Shown here piece by piece: positions 3,317 to 47,406 of a stretch of DNA of 64,000 nt. The notes beneath the pieces are model-generated. The model made no database searches, was not told the DNA's origin, and saw only the letters and a program-made list of their open reading frames with translations. Position 1 is the stretch's first letter; every line of letters starts with the position of its first letter. Source of the stretch: Botryllus schlosseri (lineage: Eukaryota); NCBI GenBank assembly GCA_051294905.1, contig CM119372.1:35466001-35530000 (forward strand), read 5' to 3'. A program made the position numbers and the translations under genes.

Positions 3317-3415
3317 ATAAGAAAGGAAGTCAAGTCCGTGTTCAACCGCTGCACACGTGCACAGCCTGTCCGAAATCACGGAGGGCCAAATAGAAAGTTG
3401 CCAGAACTTTCATAG
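3317..3415 (+). CDS. Opsin-like GPCR copy A, terminal exon (helix 8 and C-tail)
   Basis: tttcag|ATA..TAG; IRKEVKSVFNRCTRAQPVRNHGGPNRKLPELS*; start matches copy B MRKEVLAVFNR. Confidence 0.82.
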   Translation: MRKEVKSVFNRCTRAQPVRNHGGPNRKLPELS

Positions 3416-33382: not shown

Positions 33383-33547
33383 ATGAATTACACTACAAAT
33401 CCATCTTCTTTTAATCCTACTGATGCTGTCACTGATGGTGCACCGTCTTGGAAAAGACACGCCCTGATAACCTACTTGCTGTTCGTTTCAGTTCCAGGAA
33501 TCGTTTTGAATGGAACAATCGTGTTCGCTCACATGAGGAAATACGAC
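33383..33547 (+). CDS. Divergent opsin-like GPCR copy B, first identified coding exon (N-terminus, TM1)
   Basis: cgcag|ATG...GAC|gtgggt, 165 bp; MNYTTNPSSF...HALITYLLFVSVPGIVLNGTIVFAHMRKYD; N-glycosylation sequon NYT and TM1 Asn. Confidence 0.85.
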
Positions 33548-34301
33548 GTGGGTATCATAATGTATTGTCGATTACTCGAGTAATCGTCAGTGCTCGGATT
33601 CGCCCGGTTCGAATCTACAGTACTCTATCACTAAATATTACGAGATGAGCGAACCGGTTCTATGCGATAAAACCGAGACACGAAAATATTGAATTCAACC
33701 TCTGGCAACCGTTACGCGACGGTACAGTTTGTGTTGACATGTTTTGATAAGGGAGGTGTTTTCGTTACCTTTAAAAATGAGCATTTTCACCCTTTTAAGG
33801 GGTCCAATAACCAGCGATATCCTGTGCATGGGACGTCAAAGAAGTACGGACTAGAATCGGACGGAAGTATTGTATTGCATCAATAAAATAACAGCAGCAT
33901 GCCAATAACAAATTGAACAAATTGATAACTCGATCTCAAGGGCGTTTAGAAGTAATATTCTTTCTTAACATGGTCATTCAGTCTCAAAGAGTAGATATTT
34001 TGTCTTTAGTTGAGGTAAAAATATGAGAATTAGAGAGTTACTCATTCGCAGGCATTTCGCCAAGGTACAACAAAATGCGAAAGAAATTCAGATCAACTGG
34101 CCCTTCAGATTCCGGTAGATCTCGTGATTAGGCCTACATTGTTGTTTGTACATGAAATGCAAATCACATTTGGAGATATACTCACACAATAGAAAATGAA
34201 CATTGGAACGTAACCGAACAATGTTCGAATATTCATATTTATATTCAGGTTAAGCATAAGCCTCACTTACGTGACGACGTTTTTTTACAATATATTTTCA
34301 G

Positions 34302-34470
34302 CCAACCAGTCGGAACAAAAAACCTATGACGTTGCTTATCATCAATCTCTGCATTGCCAACTTACTCAGTGCCATGGTGAGCGTCATCATGATTGTGCCC
34401 ATCAACACGGGAACTTTCGAGACGTCTGATCTCACCTGTCAAATTTTCGTCCTTATTCAAGGCGTCCTAG
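34302..34470 (+). CDS. Opsin-like GPCR copy B, exon 2 (ICL1-TM2-ECL1-start of TM3)
   Basis: ttttcag|...|gtaggt, 169 bp, phase 0/1; PTSRNKKPMTLLIINLCIANLLSAMVSVIMIVPINTGTFETSDLTCQIFVLIQGVL. Confidence 0.9.
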
Positions 34471-34507
34471 GTAGGTTGGCCGAATGCTGACTTTGTTTTC
34501 TGAATAC

Positions 34508-35710
34508 TTGAAGAGCTTCTTGGAGGTACAGAACTTCAATATACAATTGAACGATGTATTCATATTGAAATGAACCCGAATATTTTCGGCTGACACTCGT
34601 CGCAGGAACGCATAAACCAACATGTCCCCAGATTCATCAGAACACGTGCATCTCGCTCAGTGAAAAGCTCACCCTTAACTCATCCGCTTGAGATTGATGC
34701 AGATCGATCAAAGGCCATTAATTCTGCCATCGGCAAACATCTGTTGAATAATACGATGTGCGCGAATATTTATCGAGACGACCGATTTCGAATCGTTGGG
34801 CGAGGCCGTTCACAATTCCATTTGTGTGCCTTGGAGTCGACTTTCATCCAAATACACCCACCAAAACTCTGTCAACAAAAGGAGTTCGTGTACCACCTAA
34901 AATAGTACATTGAACGCTCTCTCATTCACGAAATTTCATGCTGGTGACGTCATATTTTGTGATACGATTGTTGAATGTTGATTAGGGCGGTTCAAAAATA
35001 ACCTTTTTTCCTTAATCTTGCGGGCTACGTGATTAAATCGTTAGGTTGCCTTAAAAAACGACGCACACCAAATTTGAATTCATTCCAACCAATATTCGCG
35101 GTTTACGTAGAGTTTGAAAATTTTGAATTTGCCCAGAAACGCAAAAAATTTTTTTTTTCAAATTTTTCTGCCAACCCCATGAAAATGTTGGGCTGTCTTC
35201 AAAAACTATGCAAAACAAATTTGACTCAATTCCAAGCCGTAGAAGTGGAGTTATATCAGTTTTTCCTTGATAATTCTGGGATTATCCTTGATCGGTGGAT
35301 AATCCAATAATTTTCATCGAAAAACTGGAATAACTCCGCTTCTACGGCTTGGAATTGAGTAAAATTTGTTTTGCATAGTCTTTGAAGACAGCCGAACAAT
35401 TTCATGGAGTTGGCAGAAAAATTTGAAAATTTTTTTTTTTGCGTTTCTGGGCAAATTCAAAATTTTCAAACTCTACGTAAACCGCGAATATTGGTTGGAA
35501 TGAATTCAAATTTGGTGTGCGTCGTTTTTTAAGGCAACCTAACGATTTAATCACGTAGCCCGCAAGATTAAGGAAAAAAGGTTATTTTTGAACCGCCCTA
35601 ATGTTGATATACAATGTTCTTTCCAATTCTCTACTAGTTGCTGACGATTACCCCTGACGAGTGTCAGCCAAAAATATTCGTGTTCATTTCAATATGAATA
35701 TACTGTTCAA
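34508..35710 (+). mobile_element. 5'-truncated Penelope-like element with inverted partial pLTR, in intron 2 of opsin B
   Basis: ERINQH...SAIGKHLLNNTMCANIY..FRIV..LESTFI..PKLCQQKEF resembles a GIY-YIG C-terminus; 34508-34601 is an inverted pLTR piece; flanking duplication ttttctgaatac/ttttctgaatgc. Confidence 0.78.
34983..35600. mobile_element. 618-bp near-perfect palindromic (foldback) MITE inserted in the Penelope-like element
   Basis: TAGGGCGGTTCAAAAATAACC...GGTTATTTTTGAACCGCCCTA, arms ~300 bp; perfect TSD atgttgat; empty site visible near 14055-14070. Confidence 0.93.
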
Positions 35711-37354
35711 TTTTCTGAATGCCCAATAATTCCCAGGTCGATAAGCATTCAATATTGGGAAATGATAACGTATTAAGCCAAAATCAATTTGAAGGCATTC
35801 ACTGTTACCAACATGCTTCTTGTATTTCTCTCTTACCAGAAATAGCTCTGATTTCTACGCAGAGAGCAACGAAGTACTATACATTTTCGAGATAAAACGT
35901 TCCTACGTAGATATGTCCATGTATGTACATTATATATTATGGAGTATGGCACTCATCGGCAATGGCCTTGTGCACCAATACTGGCCGCTCTGAGTCTCTA
36001 TTTTGGATTGATCCATTATAGCGGCCTGTCCGTTAGCAATAAGTATTCACTTGCTGTTAGACCATAGATAGGGATACTATGTCTAAGGGCACATTAGTCC
36101 GTTGTGCTATATTCTACAAATAGTACCGCAGTTAGTTTTGACTTGTTTACTTCTAAACGGGAAGGTCAGTAACAAAGTATACTGCCTACTTGAGTCGGTT
36201 TTTTATGCTTGCAATACTTAGGCTACATGGTTATGTTGTTGTAGTACTTCAACTTCTATACTCGAACTTTTTCTAGGAATTCTTACGTAATTTTTTTACA
36301 TTTCGAGTGTTACGAAGTAGACATCAGTTTCGGATGGGTTAGCACCCCCGAAATAGCTAAAACTTGTCAATATAGAACCGTTTGAAATTGACACTGTAGC
36401 GCCGTAACTGACTGAATATCTTCTCTAACACTGTACCTAATTAGAACAAATAAAGTAATCAGTTATCTGTGGTAGTCACGAGAATACATGTTTAATTTTA
36501 AACCAACTTATGACTACCTATCGAAGTAGCCTTCAAACATTTGATTGTCTGCTTACATGTGACGTAGTTTTGAAATGTCTTGGAAATGGACACTGCTAGT
36601 TACAAATCAGTTGTTTTCGACAACGCTGGTTTTATTTTAGTTTTCAGTTGGATTTCTTCTCTTGCTCTCATCGTGATAGGAAATTCCAATTCAACGTATT
36701 TGGACAGGGCATGTTAAGAATAGAATAAAAGTCTGCTATTCCGCGAAACTTTTCACAATGTAGAACTAAGATTCGGAACTGAGGCTTAAAAAACCGCATA
36801 CACCCCAAATGTAGCTTACTTGCATTTCTCACTCATGCAATTATCTCGAAGCGAAGATACGCCAGTCTATTCTGATGAAATTTAGGATGAGAGCAATTTT
36901 TGATAGAATGAACAGGCCGAAAATTGAAATGAAAATCGTTAGGCTGATGGAAACCTCACGCAGCTACGGCTTACTGCATCCTCTACAATTTTCCCTCGTT
37001 TTTACGAGCTTTCTGGGGCTCAAAGCGAACGGACAGTGGAACAATAAATTGATTTGGAGGATTTTTCATGTTACTGTTGCTATTTGTTGGAGCACGCTTT
37101 CATGTTTAGAATCTCTCTTACGAACAATTGAGTATTCTAATGTGGCTCGATATGGACTCGGAAGCTTTTTTGTTCACACAACACAAAAGTTTGCGAACCA
37201 CTGATGTCGAACTTTTTAAGGTTAATTCGTGAAAAATATTGAGATGCCGAAAACGAAAGTGTACACGATTCCTACATGGCATGCCCTGATTGTTTAATAT
37301 TCGAAATGATTCGAATTACTGAATCATTTTGCCCACCCATATCGTATATTCCAG

Positions 37355-37456
37355 GTGGGACTTGCTTATTCTCGATGGTTACATTGTCTGTCGCACACTA
37401 CATCATTATATGCAGGAATATGCAGATTGAATTTTCACAAATGAGTGCTTTTGCAG
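37355..37456 (+). CDS. Opsin-like GPCR copy B, exon 3
   Basis: ttccag|...|gtatgc, 102 bp; GTCLFSMVTLSVAHYIIICRNMQIEFSQMSAFA. Confidence 0.9.
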
Positions 37457-37780
37457 GTATGCATTCACAGCATGGTAAATTTGTGGTTCTTATTCGAAGA
37501 AAATGTAGGGTCCATAAAAGTGTATGTCAAATATATTTTGTGTCAGCTTCCCAGCATCCAAGCTTCATGCAGGTTTAGCAATATCTGAATCGCTATTGCC
37601 TTCCTCAAACTCGTTCTTAGTGGGGACAATCTGAAATAGAGCAGAATTCATTTCGTAAAACAACAATCAGTAGGATATGTTTCAACAGTTTTGTAACATA
37701 TTTTTTCGCACTTCGTATCACTGCAGTTCTTGAAGCAAATACTGCAATCCATACGTCCAGACAAAGGATATCACACTAGG

Positions 37781-38059
37781 GTTTGTTTATTTGTGCATGT
37801 TATTTATGGTGTTTGTCGACTACTATGGCCATTTACACCAGGCCGATATTATTCATTATTTTCCGAAACTGCCAACTTATAGCACGGCCCACCTCTAGGC
37901 TTTTTGTAAGACACCGCTGATGTGGATGTGGTGTCGAGGAGGAGCCTAGGTAAACCTCCGACACTGAGGCATCGGAATTCTGAAGTCGATCTCGGTCGGA
38001 CTCGAACCCGCACCCATTGGTGTTGCAGCCGCGAATTATACCACTGCGCTATCCCGCCA
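37781..38059 (-). mobile_element. tRNA-derived SINE
   Basis: Minus strand has A box TAGCGCAGTGG and B box GGTTCGAGTCC, a body shared with ~22460-22640, ~40885-41000, ~51660-51810, ~58415-58530, and an AAAC-rich tail; other heads at ~50880-50960 and ~61040-61110. Confidence 0.8.
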
Positions 38060-38067
38060 CATTATAC

Positions 38068-38477
38068 TAGAGATACCATACGTCCTCTTTTAAGAGGATT
38101 TGTCCTCTTTTGTGACTTTTTTTAAGTGTCTCGGAAGACCAAATGTCCTCTTTTTGAAATTTTGTCCTGTTTTTTGAGAATTTTTGTCAAATTGACGCCC
38201 AAATTCGACTGAGATGCCGTAAATCAGCACCGAAGTAACGCCCCGGCGGGTATTTCGGGCGCTGAGCCGGGAAGTCGACCTTATTTAGTCTACCACCTGA
38301 TAATGTGAAGGAGAAACTGTATTTCGGGCACTTAGCGAGAAAGTTGATCTTTGTTTAGTAAACCGAACACGAAGTGAGAACAATTTACCAATTTTTCAGG
38401 ATTTTTCTCCGGTTTTGCAAGTCTGAAAATTCTGAAAAAGTATCCTATTTTCCGATTTCCAAAATATGGTAACCCTA
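38068..38477. mobile_element. hAT-like MITE, TAGGGTTACCATA family
   Basis: Ends TAGAGATACCATA/TATGGTAACCCTA; TSD cattatac/tattatac; GTCCTC motifs; partial copies near 18240-18542 and 48400-48767. Confidence 0.82.
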
Positions 38478-39262
38478 TATTATACGAGGAAAAAGATGAA
38501 AATTTTGCATAGTTAGCAGGAATAAGTTCAACCTGTCTAGAAATTGTGATACATCGGTATATGGCAATATAGTGCAGTGTTAGACCGTTTATATCTGTTG
38601 AGCTGCTTTAGTGTAGGAGAGTGAGGCTTTCAGGTGTGGAATTATTGGGCAACGAAAATATTTCGGCGACCGATTACGCTCCGGTGCACACCACGGCCTG
38701 AGAGGATTCCGTTAACATGCAACTGCGCAGAGACCGGTGTCCAAAATCCGGCGCCTACAAAACCAAATAATGCCGACGCATGTTGATCGAAACATTCACT
38801 TCCGGTCTCTTAAAACTACTTAGCGGTCACCCAAACCAAACTTTAAAAAAACTGGAGCTCCTTAATCACTTCCTGCATGATAACATATGGATTCATGTTT
38901 AATTCTCCGAGCTGACTCCTACCGCCCATCAACTTATTGATGATCACTCGTTGTGGTTGGTACCTATACACGAGTTGTGAGGTGACCTCAAAATTGATCC
39001 AACAAGTACGGTCGAATTACGTCCTATTTATTGAAAAAAGAGGACAAACCCTCCTAAAAAAGGACGTACGATAACCCTCATTAAAGCCTCTCATGAGTTG
39101 TGTTGATCACAATTAAGAGATACGACTGCCGTTTTATTACGGCGAAGGGATGATGAAGTGTTGCGTTTGCGTTACTCAATCATGTAGATAGCCTTTTGCT
39201 ATGGCCTTTACAGACAAAACTAGTGCCATGAATAAGAGTAATCGTGACAAGATTATTTCCAG

Positions 39263-39480
39263 CTATCATTTCTACCTGGATTTGGGCTGGGGTGTGGAAC
39301 ACTGTGTTGGTGATCAGCGACGGATACGGCCCCGATAGATTGCATTCGTATTGCGGTATCGTATGGAATTCACCTGACAAATATTTCGTTCAATATTGCC
39401 TCTACTTGACCTGCTGCTTTGCAGCGCCGTTATCTGTATTGGTCTTCTGCTACAGCGCGATCCTACTACATGTTCGAAAC
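39263..39480 (+). CDS. Opsin-like GPCR copy B, exon 4
   Basis: tttccag|...|gtaagt, 218 bp; IISTWIWAGVWNTVLVISDGYGPDRLHSYCGIVW...PLSVLVFCYSAILLHVRN. Confidence 0.92.
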
Positions 39481-39930
39481 GTAAGTTATATTTAGCAGAT
39501 TTTATGCTTTTAGTCTGCATATATGACTGTATAGAAATAATGATGTTCATGATCCGCTGCCTCACACGTGGAAGAAAACGAATAGAACTCTCTATCAAAA
39601 CGAATATATATTATCTCCATAAAAGCTGAGGAATGAGTTTGTTTTTGGCATTTGATATTTGAAATTACGAGGCACAATCGACGCACCGCGTAGCTGAGAG
39701 GTTTAGCTAATATTTAGGAATCTCCTTAAGTGAAGGTTAGCCGTCGAAATATTTGCTCCTTTTCTTTGTATTATCAATTAAAGCATACCCGTTTAACCCG
39801 TTCGTGAGGTAATTCTTCTGATTTGAGAACCCTGATGGTGACGGCAGATCCTAAACTCTAAATTGCAACATCTGAATCAACTGCATTTCATTTAGGAAAT
39901 TTGAATTGAATTAGTAGCGGTTATCTAACA

Positions 39931-41602
39931 CAGTGGTTCTCAACCTTTTTGACCTCGCGGCACACTTTGAAAATTAAAAATAGTTCGCGGCACACTAGCA
40001 CAGTGGTTCCGAACTCATTTGGCTTACGGCACAGGCAAACTACCAGAATGCGTATAGCAGCAACCATAGTTTTACAGAGGTGGTCTGCTGGTCAATGACG
40101 AAATACTGCTACCTTTTCGGAGCACTCAAGTAGGCGTTTCTCTGCTTTTATCTCTGCGGACATCTCACAAATACGTCTACTAATGGTATCATTTGACATG
40201 GGAATCGTTTTTAATTCTTTCGAAACATTTTTTACAATTTTATTGCAGGCCGGAAGAATAGCTTTCTCCGTTTCCGTGTGAGGTTTTGAATTATCAGCTA
40301 TTACCTCTGTTACCACATAACTGGCCCGCTGAGATCTCGTTTAAACTTCATGTTCAGCTAAATTTCGTAAGAATGACTTGACAATAAAGTCTGCCCACTA
40401 CCGCATTGTCGATGTAATTAACCGTCGCATCGAAGAGTCGATCACGATTGCCACTAACAAATACAGAGGTGTATTATACAATGTGCATAGATGCCAAACG
40501 CATTTCCACGCAGATCGTGTAATAGCACCTGTTAGGATAGCATACCTCAATAGTCTTAGTGGCAGCCACCCGCAGTTCAATTGTAGTTCCAACAAATCGG
40601 GATAATAAACTTCAGTGGCGGGGAAATTTGCAACTGATATAATTTGATCAACTTTACTTCTCAATTCTCGAATTTCTCACCTGCAACATAACATTGCACA
40701 CTGAGCCTACATTTTACCTGCAGTGCTGGCGCGCTACCTAACAATCGCAATGTGAATGGCTATGTTGGCAATTCTAATTTTTAAACGTGAACATCACTTT
40801 CAAATAAGTTCATTTCTCGATGGTGAGAATGCCTTCCTAGGTGTTGGAGGTTTATGTAAGCTCCTACTCGTCCTCCAATCTGCAAAAGCAGTGTCTTACA
40901 AAAAGTGGGCCTTGCTATAAGTTGCCATCTCAGGAATTAAAATATGAAACATCGGCATGGTGTGAAATGATCATCGATGACGAAGACATGGCAAGAATAC
41001 GACTACAAACAGAAAAATAAAAGGTCATCAACCTGGGTCATATCCCTGTTCTGCCTACGGTTCTGATGCGAGACACTTGAACACGTGAACACTTCGGCCA
41101 CACCTCAATATCACGATCCAATTACCTGAGTTTAGTTATCACCGTCCTAAATGCTACTGATGCTACTATGTGGGCAAACTAGCATATCACACCGATTGAC
41201 GCTGGAGGCCCCAGTTTGATTCATGGCAGTGCAGTAGCAAGTTACAAAGCGTTGCAGAGTTATTAGATTATCCGCCCCTATACGTTGCTGTGCTCAGAGC
41301 GTCTTTACAATAAAAAGCCCAGAGAAGGACCCAATCCATGACCTAATGGGGATGCCAGATTGAAATTATTGATTGAGATACCGTAGCTACGGTCGCCTCG
41401 GCATCCTTATATCTGTTCACTGCATCGGTTTGGGCATCGCTTGTCTTGATCGGGTAAATTCAATAGAAAAACCAACTATGATACACTCAAAATTGGGATT
41501 TTTTGTTATAGTTCCGCATAGTTTACCACATTTGCTCGCGGCACACCTGAGCAGTCCAATTGGTACACTAGTGTGCCGCGGCACACCGGTTGAGTACCAC
41601 TG
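39931..41602 (-). mobile_element. Buster/Charlie-type hAT deletion derivative with transposase remnant, intron 4 of opsin B
   Basis: TIR CAGTGGTTCTCAACC/GGTTGAGTACCACTG; TSD atctaaca/atctagca; 40092-40316(-) KPHTETEKAILPAC..PMSNDTISRRICEMS resembles Charlie/ZBED5-type transposases. Confidence 0.85.
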
Positions 41603-41779
41603 ATCTAGCATCTCGACTGTTGTGATTCAGTTTTTAGACGAATTTGCTGCTATTCAGTTTCAAACAATAGTGGAAGAAGTTACATGCTTTGATATTCATA
41701 TTTTACCTTCGCACGGGCCATGTTGCAGTGTCGTAGCCCAGACATTGGGACTTTCATTCCATTCCTTTAATGTTTTCAG

Positions 41780-41926
41780 CAGGCGAAGAGACCTTCCGAC
41801 TCGAAAACACCCTCAGCACTGTTACGGACGATGAAATCAGTTTTTGCGATCATGCTGGCATTTGTTATTTGCTGGTTTCCGTATGCTGTCATCGCGATAT
41901 TAAAGATAATGACACGACTCGACAAT
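41780..41926 (+). CDS. Opsin-like GPCR copy B, exon 5
   Basis: ttttcag|CAG (NAGNAG)...AAT|gtgcga, 147 bp; QAKRPSDSKTPSALLRTMKSVFAIMLAFVICWFPYAVIAILKIMTRLDN. Confidence 0.9.
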
Positions 41927-41984
41927 GTGCGACTCATTGGTTAATTCTGACAAATAGCATACAATTAAAAATCGAAATATTTAG

Positions 41985-42071
41985 AATTCATACCCGGACA
42001 TGTTCGCTTTCCTGGCGGCCAAAACCTCGTACCTTTCATGCCCGATGATCTACGTCATGCAAAATCGCAAT
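41985..42071 (+). CDS. Opsin-like GPCR copy B, exon 6 (TM7 with Schiff-base Lys)
   Basis: tttag|...|gtaagc, 87 bp after a 58-bp intron; NSYPDMFAFLAAKTSYLSCPMIYVMQNRN. Confidence 0.9.
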
Positions 42072-42282
42072 GTAAGCCTGGCACCATTACACTATGCATC
42101 TTTGAGGCGAACCCCGATTGCTACGGATTGGAATGAGGAGTTTATATACATCGTGTAGTCTACTTATCCAATTTATTTATTAGTTTATGTTCGTATGTAA
42201 TCCGTCACTAAACAAAATATTTGAAATAAAATCTCAATAATAGACTACCTAAAGCGGTAATGGTTAAAATCGTCGTTTCGAG

Positions 42283-44367
42283 CAGTGGTTCTCAACTTGT
42301 TTCACTTCGCGGACCGTAAAACTTCAAAAAATATCTGGCGGACCGGTGGACCATCAAAAATTGATATCAACCCAAAATGTCAAGTATTAAACCGTTTTTG
42401 GCTAGTATGGTACTAGAGAGTGACGATTTGAGAGTTTTGTTCGTAATTAAATATGTTCACGATGGTATAAAAGTGATTTTACGGTAGTTAGTCTGCTAAG
42501 TGGAAGTAAAATTCTTTGGCCAAGATAAACATGCTAGCGCCGAGACTAGATAATAGTCTTTCGCGTCGAATTCCGAAGGCACTGTGCCATTTCGAATAAC
42601 ATTCTTCTCTTCTATAATAAGTAGAAAAGACGCGTTTCGGAGTGAAACCAAGCACTGTGTCGTGCTACCTTGCTCATTTTCCACTACAACATGACGTACT
42701 GTGAATCCAATACGCGTCAAGAATACACATGGCAACAGTGACACGGGGTCATTCACAAAATGAATGTATCGGAAACGAACGAACGATCCAAGATCGTGCA
42801 AACTGCGTGGTTAAGCGAGTCAGCTCGTACTTGTCGCTCATATGTAGTTGACGATTTAAACTTCAAATTAAATCCGGCGGGCAAATATTTTTGTAGGCGT
42901 GCGTACTGCGAAGATAAATTAGGTTTGCGGGCCGGGCCAAAAAGGTCCAATCTATATTCCGCGGCGTATTTTATTCTAAATAATGAAGAAAAAACAGTGA
43001 ATTGCATTGTTAACACAATCTGCTAGCAAAGTGGATGTGGTACATTTGGGATATGAGAAAGTCGGGGTTAATTTACAAAATATTGTATTGATTAATTCAG
43101 TGACAATATTCTAAACAATGCGAAACACGAAACAATCCTAATTCATTAAAATCACTTTTACCAATACCCATTTTTCTATGGTGGCGTCAAAATGTATTTG
43201 GGATATCACGAAGCCGGTCTTGGTCTCGAGCTGTGTGTAGCGTGGCATTTAGCTTCGTTGTTTTGAGAGTTCAGCTGGTAAATGACCTGAAGTCCACGAT
43301 CTCTTGGCCTCGGTCAGCCGACGGATGTTAGTATTTCACTGCGTTTTCTCATATTGCCCATTCAAAATATATCTCCGAACACGGCAACCCGCTCACCACA
43401 AAGAAAGTGGCGTGTTTCCCTCTCACACAAGTGAACAAATATTGAGTGCTCGAAATCTTTAAATGTCTGCCTCGAGCCTCTTATGTTTTACCATGCCTGT
43501 TCATCGTATTTGGGAGACCGGTGCTCACGTCCACTGATTGACTTGTTTGACGCATTATGGATTGCAAACGCATGACATCACAATTTAAATCACAGATCGG
43601 GTAATTCGCAAAGTAACATTGGCAACATACCATTTTAAACCATCTGGAAACAGTTACTTTTGACTTTAATTGTTACGGTATACTTTGCTATATTTACAGT
43701 ATTTTGAATCCAGATTATGCGACCTATACGTAGTCTGTGTACTCAATGACAAATTCGTTCAGCACCGTTTTTCAGACAACCGAACAATGCCATGGGGTAG
43801 CCAGTAATTTTTTTTTCTAAATTTTAATTTTATTTGTTAAATAAATCCAAAACTCTTTCTTTTATAGCAATGCCACTGTACGTTGGAATCGCACTAAAAT
43901 TGTAGTACAGCGTTTTTTTGTAACCTAACAATTTTACGAAGTAGCCAGTACAATTTGTGAAACAAAAATCATTTTGGAACACCCCTAGTGTACACAGATG
44001 AAGAAAAAGGCTTAAAAGTAAACGAATTCTGGTTCAGTTTATGCAGTCTTTGGCTTTATTTCACACTTAGGATACAAAAGTTGGTTTTCTGTTCGAAGTT
44101 CCAGGTAAATGTTCATGGAAAAGTCAGAGTCGAGTAGCATGCTGCATTTGGCCCGCTTGTCGCACTTTGCCAAGGTTTGGGTTAAATCGAACATGATTTG
44201 CAGGCCTAATGTTACCACGCGAAGTTTCGAATATCTTTAAATTTGATCTTTTATTTCACCAATTGACAAGCCTTCAACATTTTGCAACTTGAAATAAAAA
44301 TATAAAATTTTAAAATACCTGACGGACCGGCACCGGTCCGCCGTCCTCCGGCGGTTGAAAACCACAG
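42283..44367. mobile_element. hAT MITE with nested fragments, last intron of opsin B
   Basis: Ends CAGTGGTTCTCAAC/GTTGAAAACCACAG; TSD gtttcgag/gtttctag; CGGACC motifs at both ends. Confidence 0.78.
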
Positions 44368-44589
44368 GTTTCTAGTACTTGAGTCGAGGTAAAAGTAATG
44401 TTGTCAATTTTGAGTTATTCACGAGTAAAAATGGATATTCATGAGCGATGCCAAATTCCAAACGAAAAGTATTCGATGAAATGGGGCCTAAGGGGGGAAA
44501 TAGTGGACGTTTACCACAGAAAGTGCTTGGGATTAAACCCAATGATATAATTATCGTATACAATCCTAAGTATTCCCACTTCCTTTCAG

Positions 44590-44697
44590 ATGAGGAAGGA
44601 AGTACTGGCAGTATTCAACCGATTCACAGTTTGTTTCAGACCAAAGCAGGACAAGAAGGCCGAAGCTATTACGGTCATGGAAAACACCGCCATTTGA
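44590..44697 (+). CDS. Opsin-like GPCR copy B, terminal exon
   Basis: cctttcag|ATG..TGA; MRKEVLAVFNRFTVCFRPKQDKKAEAITVMENTAI*; the seven exons join into an open 996-nt frame (331 aa). Confidence 0.85.
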   Translation: MRKEVLAVFNRFTVCFRPKQDKKAEAITVMENTAI

Positions 44698-46121: not shown

Positions 46122-47406
46122 GATTTTGTTGTTGTTGTTTATTAAAAGCAAAATTTGGCGCTTATCACCTGTTGGTCTTTTGCACCACGGTCAATAATAG
46201 CGTACGAAATATAAACAGCCAATGATGGCGTAGGTATTGGATAGACATAATATTTAAAAAATAGCATTTCAGTGAAACCACAGAATATCAAGGCCAGAAA
46301 AATTGAAATTTCAGAGCAGTGGAAATGAAACATTCACGGCCATTCACAAATTACGGTTGCAGGATAACACAAATTCAATTGTGAAAGGGATGATTTCATC
46401 TTCGGTGAGGAGAATTGCATGGCGGAAATAAACAATAAATTCAGCACATTTAGCAATGGGGAAAGTACGCTGTAAAGAGAGGTCAACGTGTGACTGGGGC
46501 AGAAACCAAGGTAGAATAGATGGAAGTGGTCCAATATCATGCCGTCAAACAACGACAAGTTTGTGAGCGTATTAAACGTTCGAAAGTTCGGTCTCGTTAG
46601 ACTGTAGATCTCATGCCAGCTGTCTTGAATGATATGTTGGAATAATTCATTTCCAGGCTCTTGATTCAAAATATGACATCGACATTTCATCGAGATAGAA
46701 GGTGTTGTAGATCAAGGTACTGGTCATTGCATTGGTACAGATCCGAAGGGCTTTATTCTCGATGGATTTGAGCTTCTTGAGATGGGTGACAGGCACAAAT
46801 AAGTATGCAGGCAAACCATGGGCCATATTATATCTTAAATGTGAACGGTAAACGCGCAAAAGGGTTCCCTTGTTGGCTCACCAGCTCGTGCAACTCAATA
46901 TTCGCAGTACTTTTAGCCTCTTACGACACTTGGACGAGATATATTCAATGTCAGGTTTGTATGAGAGTCTTCTGTCAAAAACAACGCCAAGGTACTTGAA
47001 TGTTTCCACCAACGGGATTTCCGAACCGTCAAGATGCTGTGAGATGGGGGGAATTTTGTGCTCACGTGTAAAGTACCTTGCTACATTTTTTTCCGTGGAT
47101 AATATCAGGCCCCACTGATTACACCAATGCTGTAAGTAAGACGTAAAACTTTGTACCGTGTGGACACGATTGGATGTGGACAAATCGCTGCCCAAGATCA
47201 GAAGATCATCAGCGAATAGTGCGTGGGAGCAATCGGCCATTGGTGGAAGATCAGACACGATTACCGCATGGAGAAGCGGACTTATGACACTGTCTTAGGG
47301 GAGACCATTTTCCAGATAGTGTGTGTTAGAAAGGATATTCCCGTCCTGGAAAGAACGCGTTGACTAAAAGTTGTTGATCCAAACTAGCATTTGACCTTTG
47401 ACCCCA
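46122..47406 (-). mobile_element. 5'-truncated, decayed non-LTR retrotransposon (RT C-terminal half; I-group-like by inference)
   Basis: GLP*DSVISPLL, LFADD, WCNQWGL, KYLGVVFD, LRILSCTSW; AATAAA plus (CAA)n tail; perfect 13-bp TSD aagcatactaatt (46109-46121, 47407-47419). Confidence 0.9.

Follow-up and report, generated by a model that had tools for sequence, protein, structure and literature searches.

The 64-kb stretch of DNA analysed here (the window; C2:35,466,001-35,530,000, where C2 is contig CM119372.1) carries an opsin gene, copy B, that keeps its chromophore site but has lost most of the canonical motifs on the cytoplasmic side. On balance, copy B probably encodes a retinal-binding protein that is derived from c-type opsins (c-opsins) and in which G-protein coupling was lost or rerouted. 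The parts of this reading differ in strength. That copy B is a real opsin-family gene whose product binds retinal is very likely, a loss or strong alteration of canonical G-protein activation is somewhat favoured, and a specific role as photoisomerase is improbable.

Copy B lies on the + strand at 33383-44697 and was assembled by reading and joining open reading frames (ORFs). It has seven exons and only GT-AG introns, and the joined coding sequence of 996 nt encodes 331 amino acids followed by a stop. Exon 1 (33383-33547) starts with an ATG at 33383, directly 3' of an AG acceptor, and encodes the N-terminus with an N-Y-T sequon and transmembrane segment 1 (TM1, with N55; bovine rhodopsin numbering throughout); the MNYTT start is common to four paralogues. 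Exon 2 (34302-34470) covers intracellular loop 1 (ICL1), TM2 (N83), extracellular loop 1 (ECL1) and the start of TM3 (C110, F113), and it ends in phase 1 within the codon aligned to G121. The rest of TM3, with A134-H135-Y136, and ICL2 are in exon 3 (37355-37456). Exon 4 (39263-39480) encodes TM4 (W161), ECL2 (Y178, P180, D181, C187, G188) and TM5 (P215, Y223), and its phase 0 end falls at 232/233. It is followed by exon 5 (41780-41926), with ICL3 (L247) and TM6 (F261, W265, P267, Y268), and, after an intron of 58 nt, by exon 6 (41985-42071), which contributes TM7 with K296, C302-P-M-I-Y306 and N-R-N and has its phase 0 end at 312/313. Exon 7 (44590-44697) adds helix 8 plus a short tail, with the stop codon at 44695-44697. 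A hydropathy scan with a 19-residue span gave six clear hydrophobic stretches, TM7 falling under the cut-off of 1.4.

For exon 4 an alternative acceptor at 39239, which would give a protein of 339 residues, was rejected. That site is weak and produces a seven-residue insertion at the exon 3/4 joint relative to fish opsins. The acceptor at 39263, in phase and 24 nt further 3', is strong and has a good pyrimidine tract. The exon start was placed there because the insertion vanishes and because a contig piece from a public sequencing run starting at 39260, of which three bases are ambiguous between the end of exon 3 and the end of the intron, fits this site. With the 39263 acceptor, the seven GT-AG exons and the open 331-residue frame with seven transmembrane segments that a first, sequence-only reading had proposed stand as described.

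Individual sites were assigned from a MAFFT alignment with 16 fish c-opsins and from a site table based on a second alignment. Copy B retains N55, C110, W161, C187, P215, Y223, W265, P267, Y268, K296, P303, Y306 and N310. Changed positions are D83 to N, E134-R135-Y136 to A-H-Y, E247 to L, N302 to C, and K311-Q312 to R-N. Both analyses agree with the sequence-only reading, which had listed K296, C110/C187, CWFPYA, P215, Y223 and Y306 as kept and AHY, L247, N83, CPMIY and NRNM in place of NKQF as changes. Not included in that list were position 181, which is Asp, and position 113, which is Phe. Residue D181 is a possible acidic counterion at the place used in invertebrate and non-visual opsins.

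These alignments confirm copy B as an intact opsin-family class-A receptor gene, with the class-A fold of seven transmembrane segments, a TM7 lysine at K296, the C110-C187 pair and an acidic residue at 181. Aligned to fish parietopsins, the spliced protein is about 24% identical over residues 26-314 (E about 1e-24). When single exons were compared with the PDB, the only match of exon 6 was a bovine rhodopsin TM7 peptide (1FDF), with the lysine on K296 and the cysteine on N302, and all 11 matches of exon 4 were opsins (cone opsins or rhodopsin), cone opsins being best with 26 bits; exon 2 gave nothing useful in this search. Partial matches to Pfam 7tm_1 were found for exons 2, 4 and 5, each single exon staying below the whole-protein cut-off. 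The NKQ-type tripeptide and the E/DRY motif of c-opsins are absent from copy B and the paralogues described below, which have NRN, NSQ or NT- and A-H-[Y/F], respectively. Their derived NPxxY motifs (CPMIY, CPIIY, SPIIY and SPVIY) resemble the situation in RGR and retinochrome, as a resemblance only.

Copy B is part of a tandem array. The genome to which the window belongs (495.5 Mb in 219 contigs) was searched and 20 kb was fetched around each exon 4 match; array exons were then located by tblastn and ORF reading, to which genome-wide searches with exons 2 and 6 were added. Exon 4 matches 15 places in the genome, and nine of these lie within C2:35.10-35.56 Mb, all on the + strand. Across its roughly 0.45 Mb, the array has seven genes that look intact, two copies that are partial or broken and a single isolated exon. 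Subgroup 1 contains copy B, its twin g35107, g35254 and copy A, with exons 1-6 open in all four, as well as g35225, of which only exons 3-7 were found. Copy A is the second opsin gene of the window: its exons 3-7 lie at 716-817, 1008-1225, 1794-1940, 1999-2085 and 3317-3415 (including the stop), exons 1 and 2 are just upstream of the window, and its splice places are those of copy B. It carries AHY, D181, L247, K296, CPIIY and NRN, in accordance with the earlier statement that AHY, L247, CPIIY and NRN are shared by the two copies. Subgroup 2 consists of g35183, g35537 and g35559, in which exons 1-6 were found and exon 7 was not located. Gene g35436 looks broken, having an in-frame TGA in exon 4 together with S178, F268 and C306, and a lone subgroup-2 exon 2 at C2:35,201,676 has a score equal to that of exon 2 of g35559.

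As to the age of these copies, copy B and g35107 are separated by a synonymous distance (dS) of 0.05 and copy A and g35225 by 0.11, and g35183 and g35537 are nearly identical. Such near-identical pairs point to a recent segmental duplication of a three-gene block that was subsequently rearranged.

The unusual residues of copy B recur throughout the array. According to the site table, N83 is present in 7/7 copies that have exon 2, and A134-H135 in 8/8 copies that have exon 3, with Tyr as the next residue in six and Phe in two. Position 302 is Cys in six and Ser in three of the nine copies. All nine have D181, K296 and P303, and eight of them have Y306; position 113 is Phe or Tyr, and no intact copy departs from C187, W265 or Y268. 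In a tree built by maximum likelihood from the nine array copies, two relatives on contig C16 and six fish c-opsins, in which several branches are long, the array is monophyletic (100/100), and its stem measures 1.31 substitutions per site.

The array is under purifying selection. Ratios of nonsynonymous to synonymous substitution (dN/dS) were 0.23-0.39 in all ten pairs of five subgroup-1 copies, at dS values of 0.05-0.58. For copies A and B the ratio was 0.26 over 294 codons (first estimate 0.28, bootstrap 0.17-0.44). Among four full-length copies, invariant positions number 17/18 in TM7, 23/27 in TM2 and 15/21 in ICL3; TM7 is the most conserved segment, ICL3 is about as conserved as the helices, and ICL1 is conserved as well. 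Because the same substitutions are fixed in a monophyletic array of seven apparently intact paralogues under purifying selection, the data support the view, already put forward in the sequence-only reading, that the altered motifs are a maintained state and not the decay of one gene.

A decaying pseudogene family, or an artefact of gene prediction, would account for the broken g35436 (in-frame TGA, Y306C), for the absence of exons 1 and 2 from g35225 and for the very low expression in the mapped runs. Seven copies with all found exons open and conserved GT-AG sites, the dN/dS ratios and the existence of spliced contigs make this explanation hardly credible.

The gene structure suggests where the array came from. 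Introns of copy B fall at aligned residue 121 (phase 1), 232/233 (phase 0) and 312/313 (phase 0), and by alignment these three sit at the intron places of vertebrate rhodopsin and c-opsins. The RHO boundary c.936/937 fits the names of RHO splice variants in the literature, and the other two RHO boundaries are c.361/362 and c.696/697; fish c-opsin ORF fragments read into 'V' (GT) right after the 232 place. In the available part of PMC5648526, three introns are described as shared by every c-opsin subgroup at the same position and phase, coordinates not being stated there. Copy B has three further introns, in ICL1, at about residue 155 and in ECL3.

Two relatives on contig C16 are canonical. The first, c16a, has D83, C110, E113, S-R-Y, E181, E247, CWTPY, K296, NPIIY and NGK; the second, c16b, has D83, Y113, SRY, E181 and L247, and its exon 6 was not found. 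Where visible, the exon ends of both match those of the array, one on the G121 codon and one at 232/233, and c16a also has a short intron between TM6 and TM7 and an exon end at 312/313. The splice boundaries of the C16 genes, like those of subgroup 2, were read from ORFs and alignments and not from transcripts. Because three intron places are shared and canonical relatives have the same exon ends, we interpret the array as a derived branch of the c-type opsins that forms a lineage-specific tandem family.

Opsin-like exons also occur beyond the array. At least ten loci outside it, that of c16a among them, have an exon 4-like opsin exon, at C16:14.39-14.47 Mb, C2:37.13-37.22 Mb, C8:19.05 Mb, C6:13.59 Mb and C14:11.52-11.54 Mb, and those on C16 and at C2:37 Mb show the ECL2 pattern Y-D-L-E-G...C. 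A fish TMT opsin gave weak exon matches in the genome, the best with 46.6 bits. Judged against the small number of opsins in Ciona, this would be an opsin-rich tunicate. According to the available part of PMC11893379, tunicates are the only group besides vertebrates with reports of the superfamily of vertebrate visual and non-visual opsins.

How the encoded proteins may work can be proposed from the distribution of kept and changed residues. On the chromophore side, K296, an acid at position 181 (Asp), the disulfide C110-C187, W265 and Y268 were kept, and retinal would be bound through a protonated Schiff base, D181 serving as counterion. The changes of D83 (position 2.50) to N, of E/D-R-Y to A-H-[Y/F] and of N302 (7.49) to C or S replaced the cytoplasmic switches on the stem branch of the array and have stayed fixed since. 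Arg3.50, which is R135 in rhodopsin, contacts the C-terminus of the G-protein α-subunit. Since R3.50 is missing, canonical G-protein activation is not expected: without this arginine and with a changed D2.50/N7.49 polar network, light could probably not drive the conformation that binds G proteins. From the conservation of ICL1 and ICL3, a cytoplasmic partner of some kind is probably still bound. The result would be a light- or retinal-handling protein with an altered output, through arrestin, through another partner, or as a photoisomerase or retinal buffer. In the R137H mutant of the V2 vasopressin receptor and in R135 mutants of rhodopsin, G-protein signalling is lost and arrestin is bound constitutively, and because of this arrestin binding an arrestin-type output is one candidate.

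A wider proposal, which we regard as tentative and rather doubtful, is that the array represents tunicate-specific 'atypical opsins'. These would be c-opsin-derived, retinal-binding proteins with His3.50, Asn2.50 and Cys or Ser at 7.49 as the fixed wild-type state. Their light sensing would bypass heterotrimeric G proteins and rely on arrestin or a different partner, or they would be convergent photoisomerases.

Several findings weigh against lost or rerouted coupling in copy B, or against parts of the evidence for it. An altered NPxxY or E/DRY motif is not proof of lost signalling in the available passages of PMC9368030 and PMC10512536: MT2 signals with NAxxY and the bovine P303A mutant has 141% activity (PMC9368030), and a full E/DRY motif is present in only 2 of 29 Nematostella opsins (PMC10512536). 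The loss of E247 is not specific to the array, since this residue is also missing in the canonical c16b. In the PDB comparison, exon 5 (TM6) is generic and scored higher with the GnRH receptor (24.9 bits) than with rhodopsin (18.2 bits). The tree has no r-opsin, tetraopsin, xenopsin or non-opsin outgroup, and the family placement comes from intron places, best matches and the tree together.

For transcript evidence, four sequencing runs were mapped, one raw RNA run (X23, 6% read) and three, including X20, that were guessed to be RNA. Contigs of X20 join 33547 to 34302 (record 17) as well as 41926 to 41985 and 42071 to 44590 (record 21), and other contig pieces end at 33547 or lie at 41780-41926, matching the predicted exon ends. 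A piece at 37353-37453 continues with unaligned sequence beyond exon 3, and the 3' untranslated region extends to at least 44852 in the contig of the twin gene. The spliced contigs carry the exact base differences of twin g35107 (C2:35.107 Mb), not the bases of copy B: one in exon 2, two in the exon 4 piece, and three, two and six in exons 5, 6 and 7. This twin lies 398 kb upstream of copy B and is 97-98% identical to it; the contigs thus establish the exon-intron structure of this close paralogue and not that of copy B. In X23, at the 6% read, there was almost no depth on copy B exons. Junction support, which the sequence-only reading had named as a check on its gene model, was obtained for the joints of exons 1-2 and 5-6-7 at the predicted bases, on contigs that derive from the twin gene.

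The main rival to lost or rerouted coupling builds on the first of these points. Copy B would then be an ordinary G-protein-signalling photopigment, in which a possibly protonated His135, acting with Y223 and Y306, is enough for coupling, and the motif changes would tune kinetics, G-protein choice or pH dependence while leaving signalling in place. Receptors with a non-canonical NPxxY or E/DRY do signal (PMC9368030 and PMC10512536, as far as available), Y223, Y306, P303, W265/P267 and N55 are all kept, and ICL3 and ICL1 are conserved as if a cytoplasmic partner still binds. Such an interpretation has to accommodate the replacement of Arg3.50 in 8/8 copies and of D2.50 in 7/7, in addition to that of N7.49; three linked switches changed at once on a single stem branch. 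Substitutions of R3.50 also abolish the activation of transducin by rhodopsin. We consider ordinary signalling with unusual motifs possible, with a chance well short of even.

The form of the NPxxY motif bears on another explanation, a dedicated photoisomerase or retinal store that binds all-trans retinal and returns the 11-cis form to the animal's own canonical opsins without signalling. In the accessible part of PMC9368030, derived NPxxY motifs are reported for RGR (NAxxY), retinochromes (VPxxY and YPxxY) and also gluopsins, which agrees with the earlier remark that altered NPxxY occurs in photoisomerase-type opsins such as RGR and retinochrome. As in the retinochromes described there, 7.49 is changed in the array while P7.50 and Y7.53 are kept, and K296 and an acidic residue at 181 are retained. 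The gene structure is at odds with this explanation, its c-opsin intron places speaking against kinship to RGR or retinochrome. Because gene structure and canonical relatives (one with E113 and E181) are c-opsin-like, a photoisomerase role would be convergent. A seven-fold amplification and conserved cytoplasmic loops would be unexpected of a simple isomerase, and an ICL3 conserved to this degree speaks for a cytoplasmic partner that was retained rather than for a pure isomerase. Furthermore, duplication is rare in RGR, retinochrome and molluscan peropsin (PMC10733189, available part). We therefore regard a dedicated photoisomerase or retinal store as unlikely.

A light-independent receptor, i.e., a chemo-, thermo- or mechanosensor or a scavenger in which K296 has only a structural role, appears less probable still. 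The long stem branch and rapid tandem expansion are typical of chemoreceptor families, and TM6 is closer to peptide receptors than to rhodopsin. On the other hand, the invariance of K296, D181, C187, W265 and Y268 in intact copies and the 17/18 invariant positions of TM7 are hard to explain without a chromophore.

Close counterparts were sought in sequence collections and in the literature. A phmmer search of exon 4 against 1.84 billion representatives gave four matches, all fragments, at 28-38% identity and none closer. Two of these are pieces of fish c-opsins and two are near the C16 genes (P0001, 89% identical to c16b, and P0003, placed by eye). A homologue search with exon 4 returned 67 candidates, none at E<=0.001. 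With a profile that included the fish fragments 604 matches were obtained, of which the best 120 were teleost c-opsins drawn in by those fragments; the profile without them gave 7886 candidates, none at E<=0.1. Exon 4 in the ESM Atlas retrieved unnamed clusters first and then generic fragments of G-protein-coupled receptors or rhodopsin below 0.9, which was uninformative. Full-text literature searches found no paper for CPIIY, CPMIY or CPxxY and nothing relevant for AHY combined with opsin and DRY. In the part of the PMC9368030 supplement available as FASTA (about 5000 opsins, lines wrapped at 60 letters), eight array motifs and five c16 motifs had no matches, and 'YDLEG' occurs 10 times, two salmonid opsins being among the matches listed. 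Array motifs were equally without matches in the anthozoan opsin supplements of PMC10512536 and PMC8097283, as far as these were available. Within the literature and opsin sets searched, the fixation of His3.50, Asn2.50 and Cys/Ser7.49 in a K296-bearing clade of c-opsin type thus appears to be new.

Tunicates form the sister group to the vertebrates, and outside the vertebrates no c-type opsins are closer to our visual pigments than theirs. With its chromophore site kept, three linked switches replaced and the new state maintained by selection, the array offers a natural experiment on what these switches are for. It bears on whether an opsin can work without Arg3.50, and on whether photoisomerase-like or arrestin-biased opsins arose more than once. 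Should the proteins indeed be atypical opsins, they would be the first such family among the chordate c-opsins, in the lineage from which the vertebrate visual pigments arose. Opsins with His3.50 could serve as templates for biased optogenetic tools. If they signal normally, the E/DRY, D2.50 and NPxxY rules would be looser in opsins than textbooks state.

Some features of the window and the genome lie outside the opsin genes proper. Intron 2 of copy B contains a nested repeat element (34545-35712) that is not part of the gene product. Its outer inverted ends of 57 nt (34545-34601 and 35656-35712) are 91% complementary, and inside it is a near-perfect palindrome at 34981-35602 with arms at 34981-35166/35417-35602 (96%) and 35155-35287/35297-35429 (90%). 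The element is extremely abundant in all four runs, and many reads skip from 34968 to 35602; element copies without the inner palindrome therefore exist elsewhere. High-depth dispersed repeats with fixed base differences from the window occupy 37501-38282 and 39847-41800 (introns 3 and 4). The 101 other ORFs of at least 75 residues gave a single Pfam match, a fragment of an RVT_1 reverse transcriptase at 46881-47294 on the - strand (E 2.7e-07). Rfam and tRNA scans of the 64-kb window gave no matches, and it has no recognisable gene besides the two opsin genes.

Elsewhere in the genome, three let-7-type hairpins scored 46.3, 43.1 and 42.6 bits, below the gathering score of 53.5, though one looks canonical. 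One locus is at C11:13146872-13146939 (+), and two hairpins with diverged mature arms stand in tandem 56 nt apart at C9:17372761-17372974 (-). One of the hairpins matches mature let-7 exactly over 22 nt. At C9:15,025,585-15,068,854 (-), on a contig of 27.9 Mb, two GH6 domains lie 43 kb apart, one of them at a distance of 3.3 kb from a cellulose-synthase domain, which suggests two tandem genes of cellulose-synthase type. Among animals, a fused cellulose-synthase/GH6 gene is known only from tunicates. Together, let-7 and the cellulose-synthase/GH6 pair indicate a tunicate genome. An amphioxus genome, considered because of apparent differences of 5%, found no support: these differences are between paralogues, and the cellulose-synthase/GH6 pair speaks against amphioxus. 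Identical linker-histone genes form arrays at C8:28.36-28.42 Mb and C1:6.16-6.19 Mb, with a spacing on C8 that alternates between about 5.8 and 10.9-11.7 kb, and a core histone H4 gene adjoins an H1 gene on C6. Three H1 proteins had no exact counterpart in the sequence collection searched.

Of the known systems, tunicate and vertebrate c-opsins (e.g., Ci-opsin1, encephalopsin/TMT) share with copy B the intron places at 121 (phase 1), 232/233 and 312/313, the ECL2 pattern Y178-x-P180-[E/D]181...C187-G188 and A-K-T-S in TM7, and they provide its best PDB and library matches. The pairing of E113 and E181 in c16a is also that reported for Ci-opsin1. Copy B differs from c-opsins by the lack of E113, by H for R at 3.50, N for D at 2.50, C or S for N at 7.49 in its array and NRN for NKQ, by an identity of only about 24% to fish c-opsins, and by its three extra introns.

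Similarity to RGR and retinochrome lies in the kept K296 and the derived NPxxY, and for the retinochromes includes the change of 7.49 alone (VPxxY or YPxxY there, CPxxY or SPxxY in the array; PMC9368030, available part). Unlike these tetraopsins or chromopsins, the array has a c-opsin-like gene structure and has lost R3.50 and D2.50, a loss not mentioned for them in the passages at hand. It is also a multi-gene tandem, unlike retinochrome and molluscan peropsin, rarely duplicated according to the available text of PMC10733189. The c-opsin introns and best matches argue against kinship with RGR or retinochrome.

The anthozoan-specific opsins II (ASO-II, e.g., NvASOII-4) are likewise a lineage-specific, tandemly expanded and intron-bearing group, and in some of its members position 83 is Asn, E/DRY is degenerate and NPxxY diverges (PMC10512536, in the part available). 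An assignment to this group had been raised by the intron-bearing expansion, by the weak matches to fish TMT opsin and by the nearest histone H1 cluster in the Atlas, labelled 'commonest Cnidaria'; it was dropped in view of the let-7 hairpins and the cellulose-synthase/GH6 genes. Searches of the genome for GFP and mollusc haemocyanin gave no matches, but their controls were silent as well, so that these negatives carry no weight. ASO-II genes are cnidarian, and NvASOII-4 has lost K296 (same source and extent), unlike the array, which keeps it.

The loss of Arg3.50 with preservation of the fold is what the array shares with receptors in which this residue is changed, such as V2 R137H, the R135 mutants of rhodopsin and the atypical chemokine receptors, which engage arrestin and no longer couple to G proteins. 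Such receptors are single mutants or decoys outside the opsins, whereas in the array His3.50 is the fixed wild type of a whole opsin clade.

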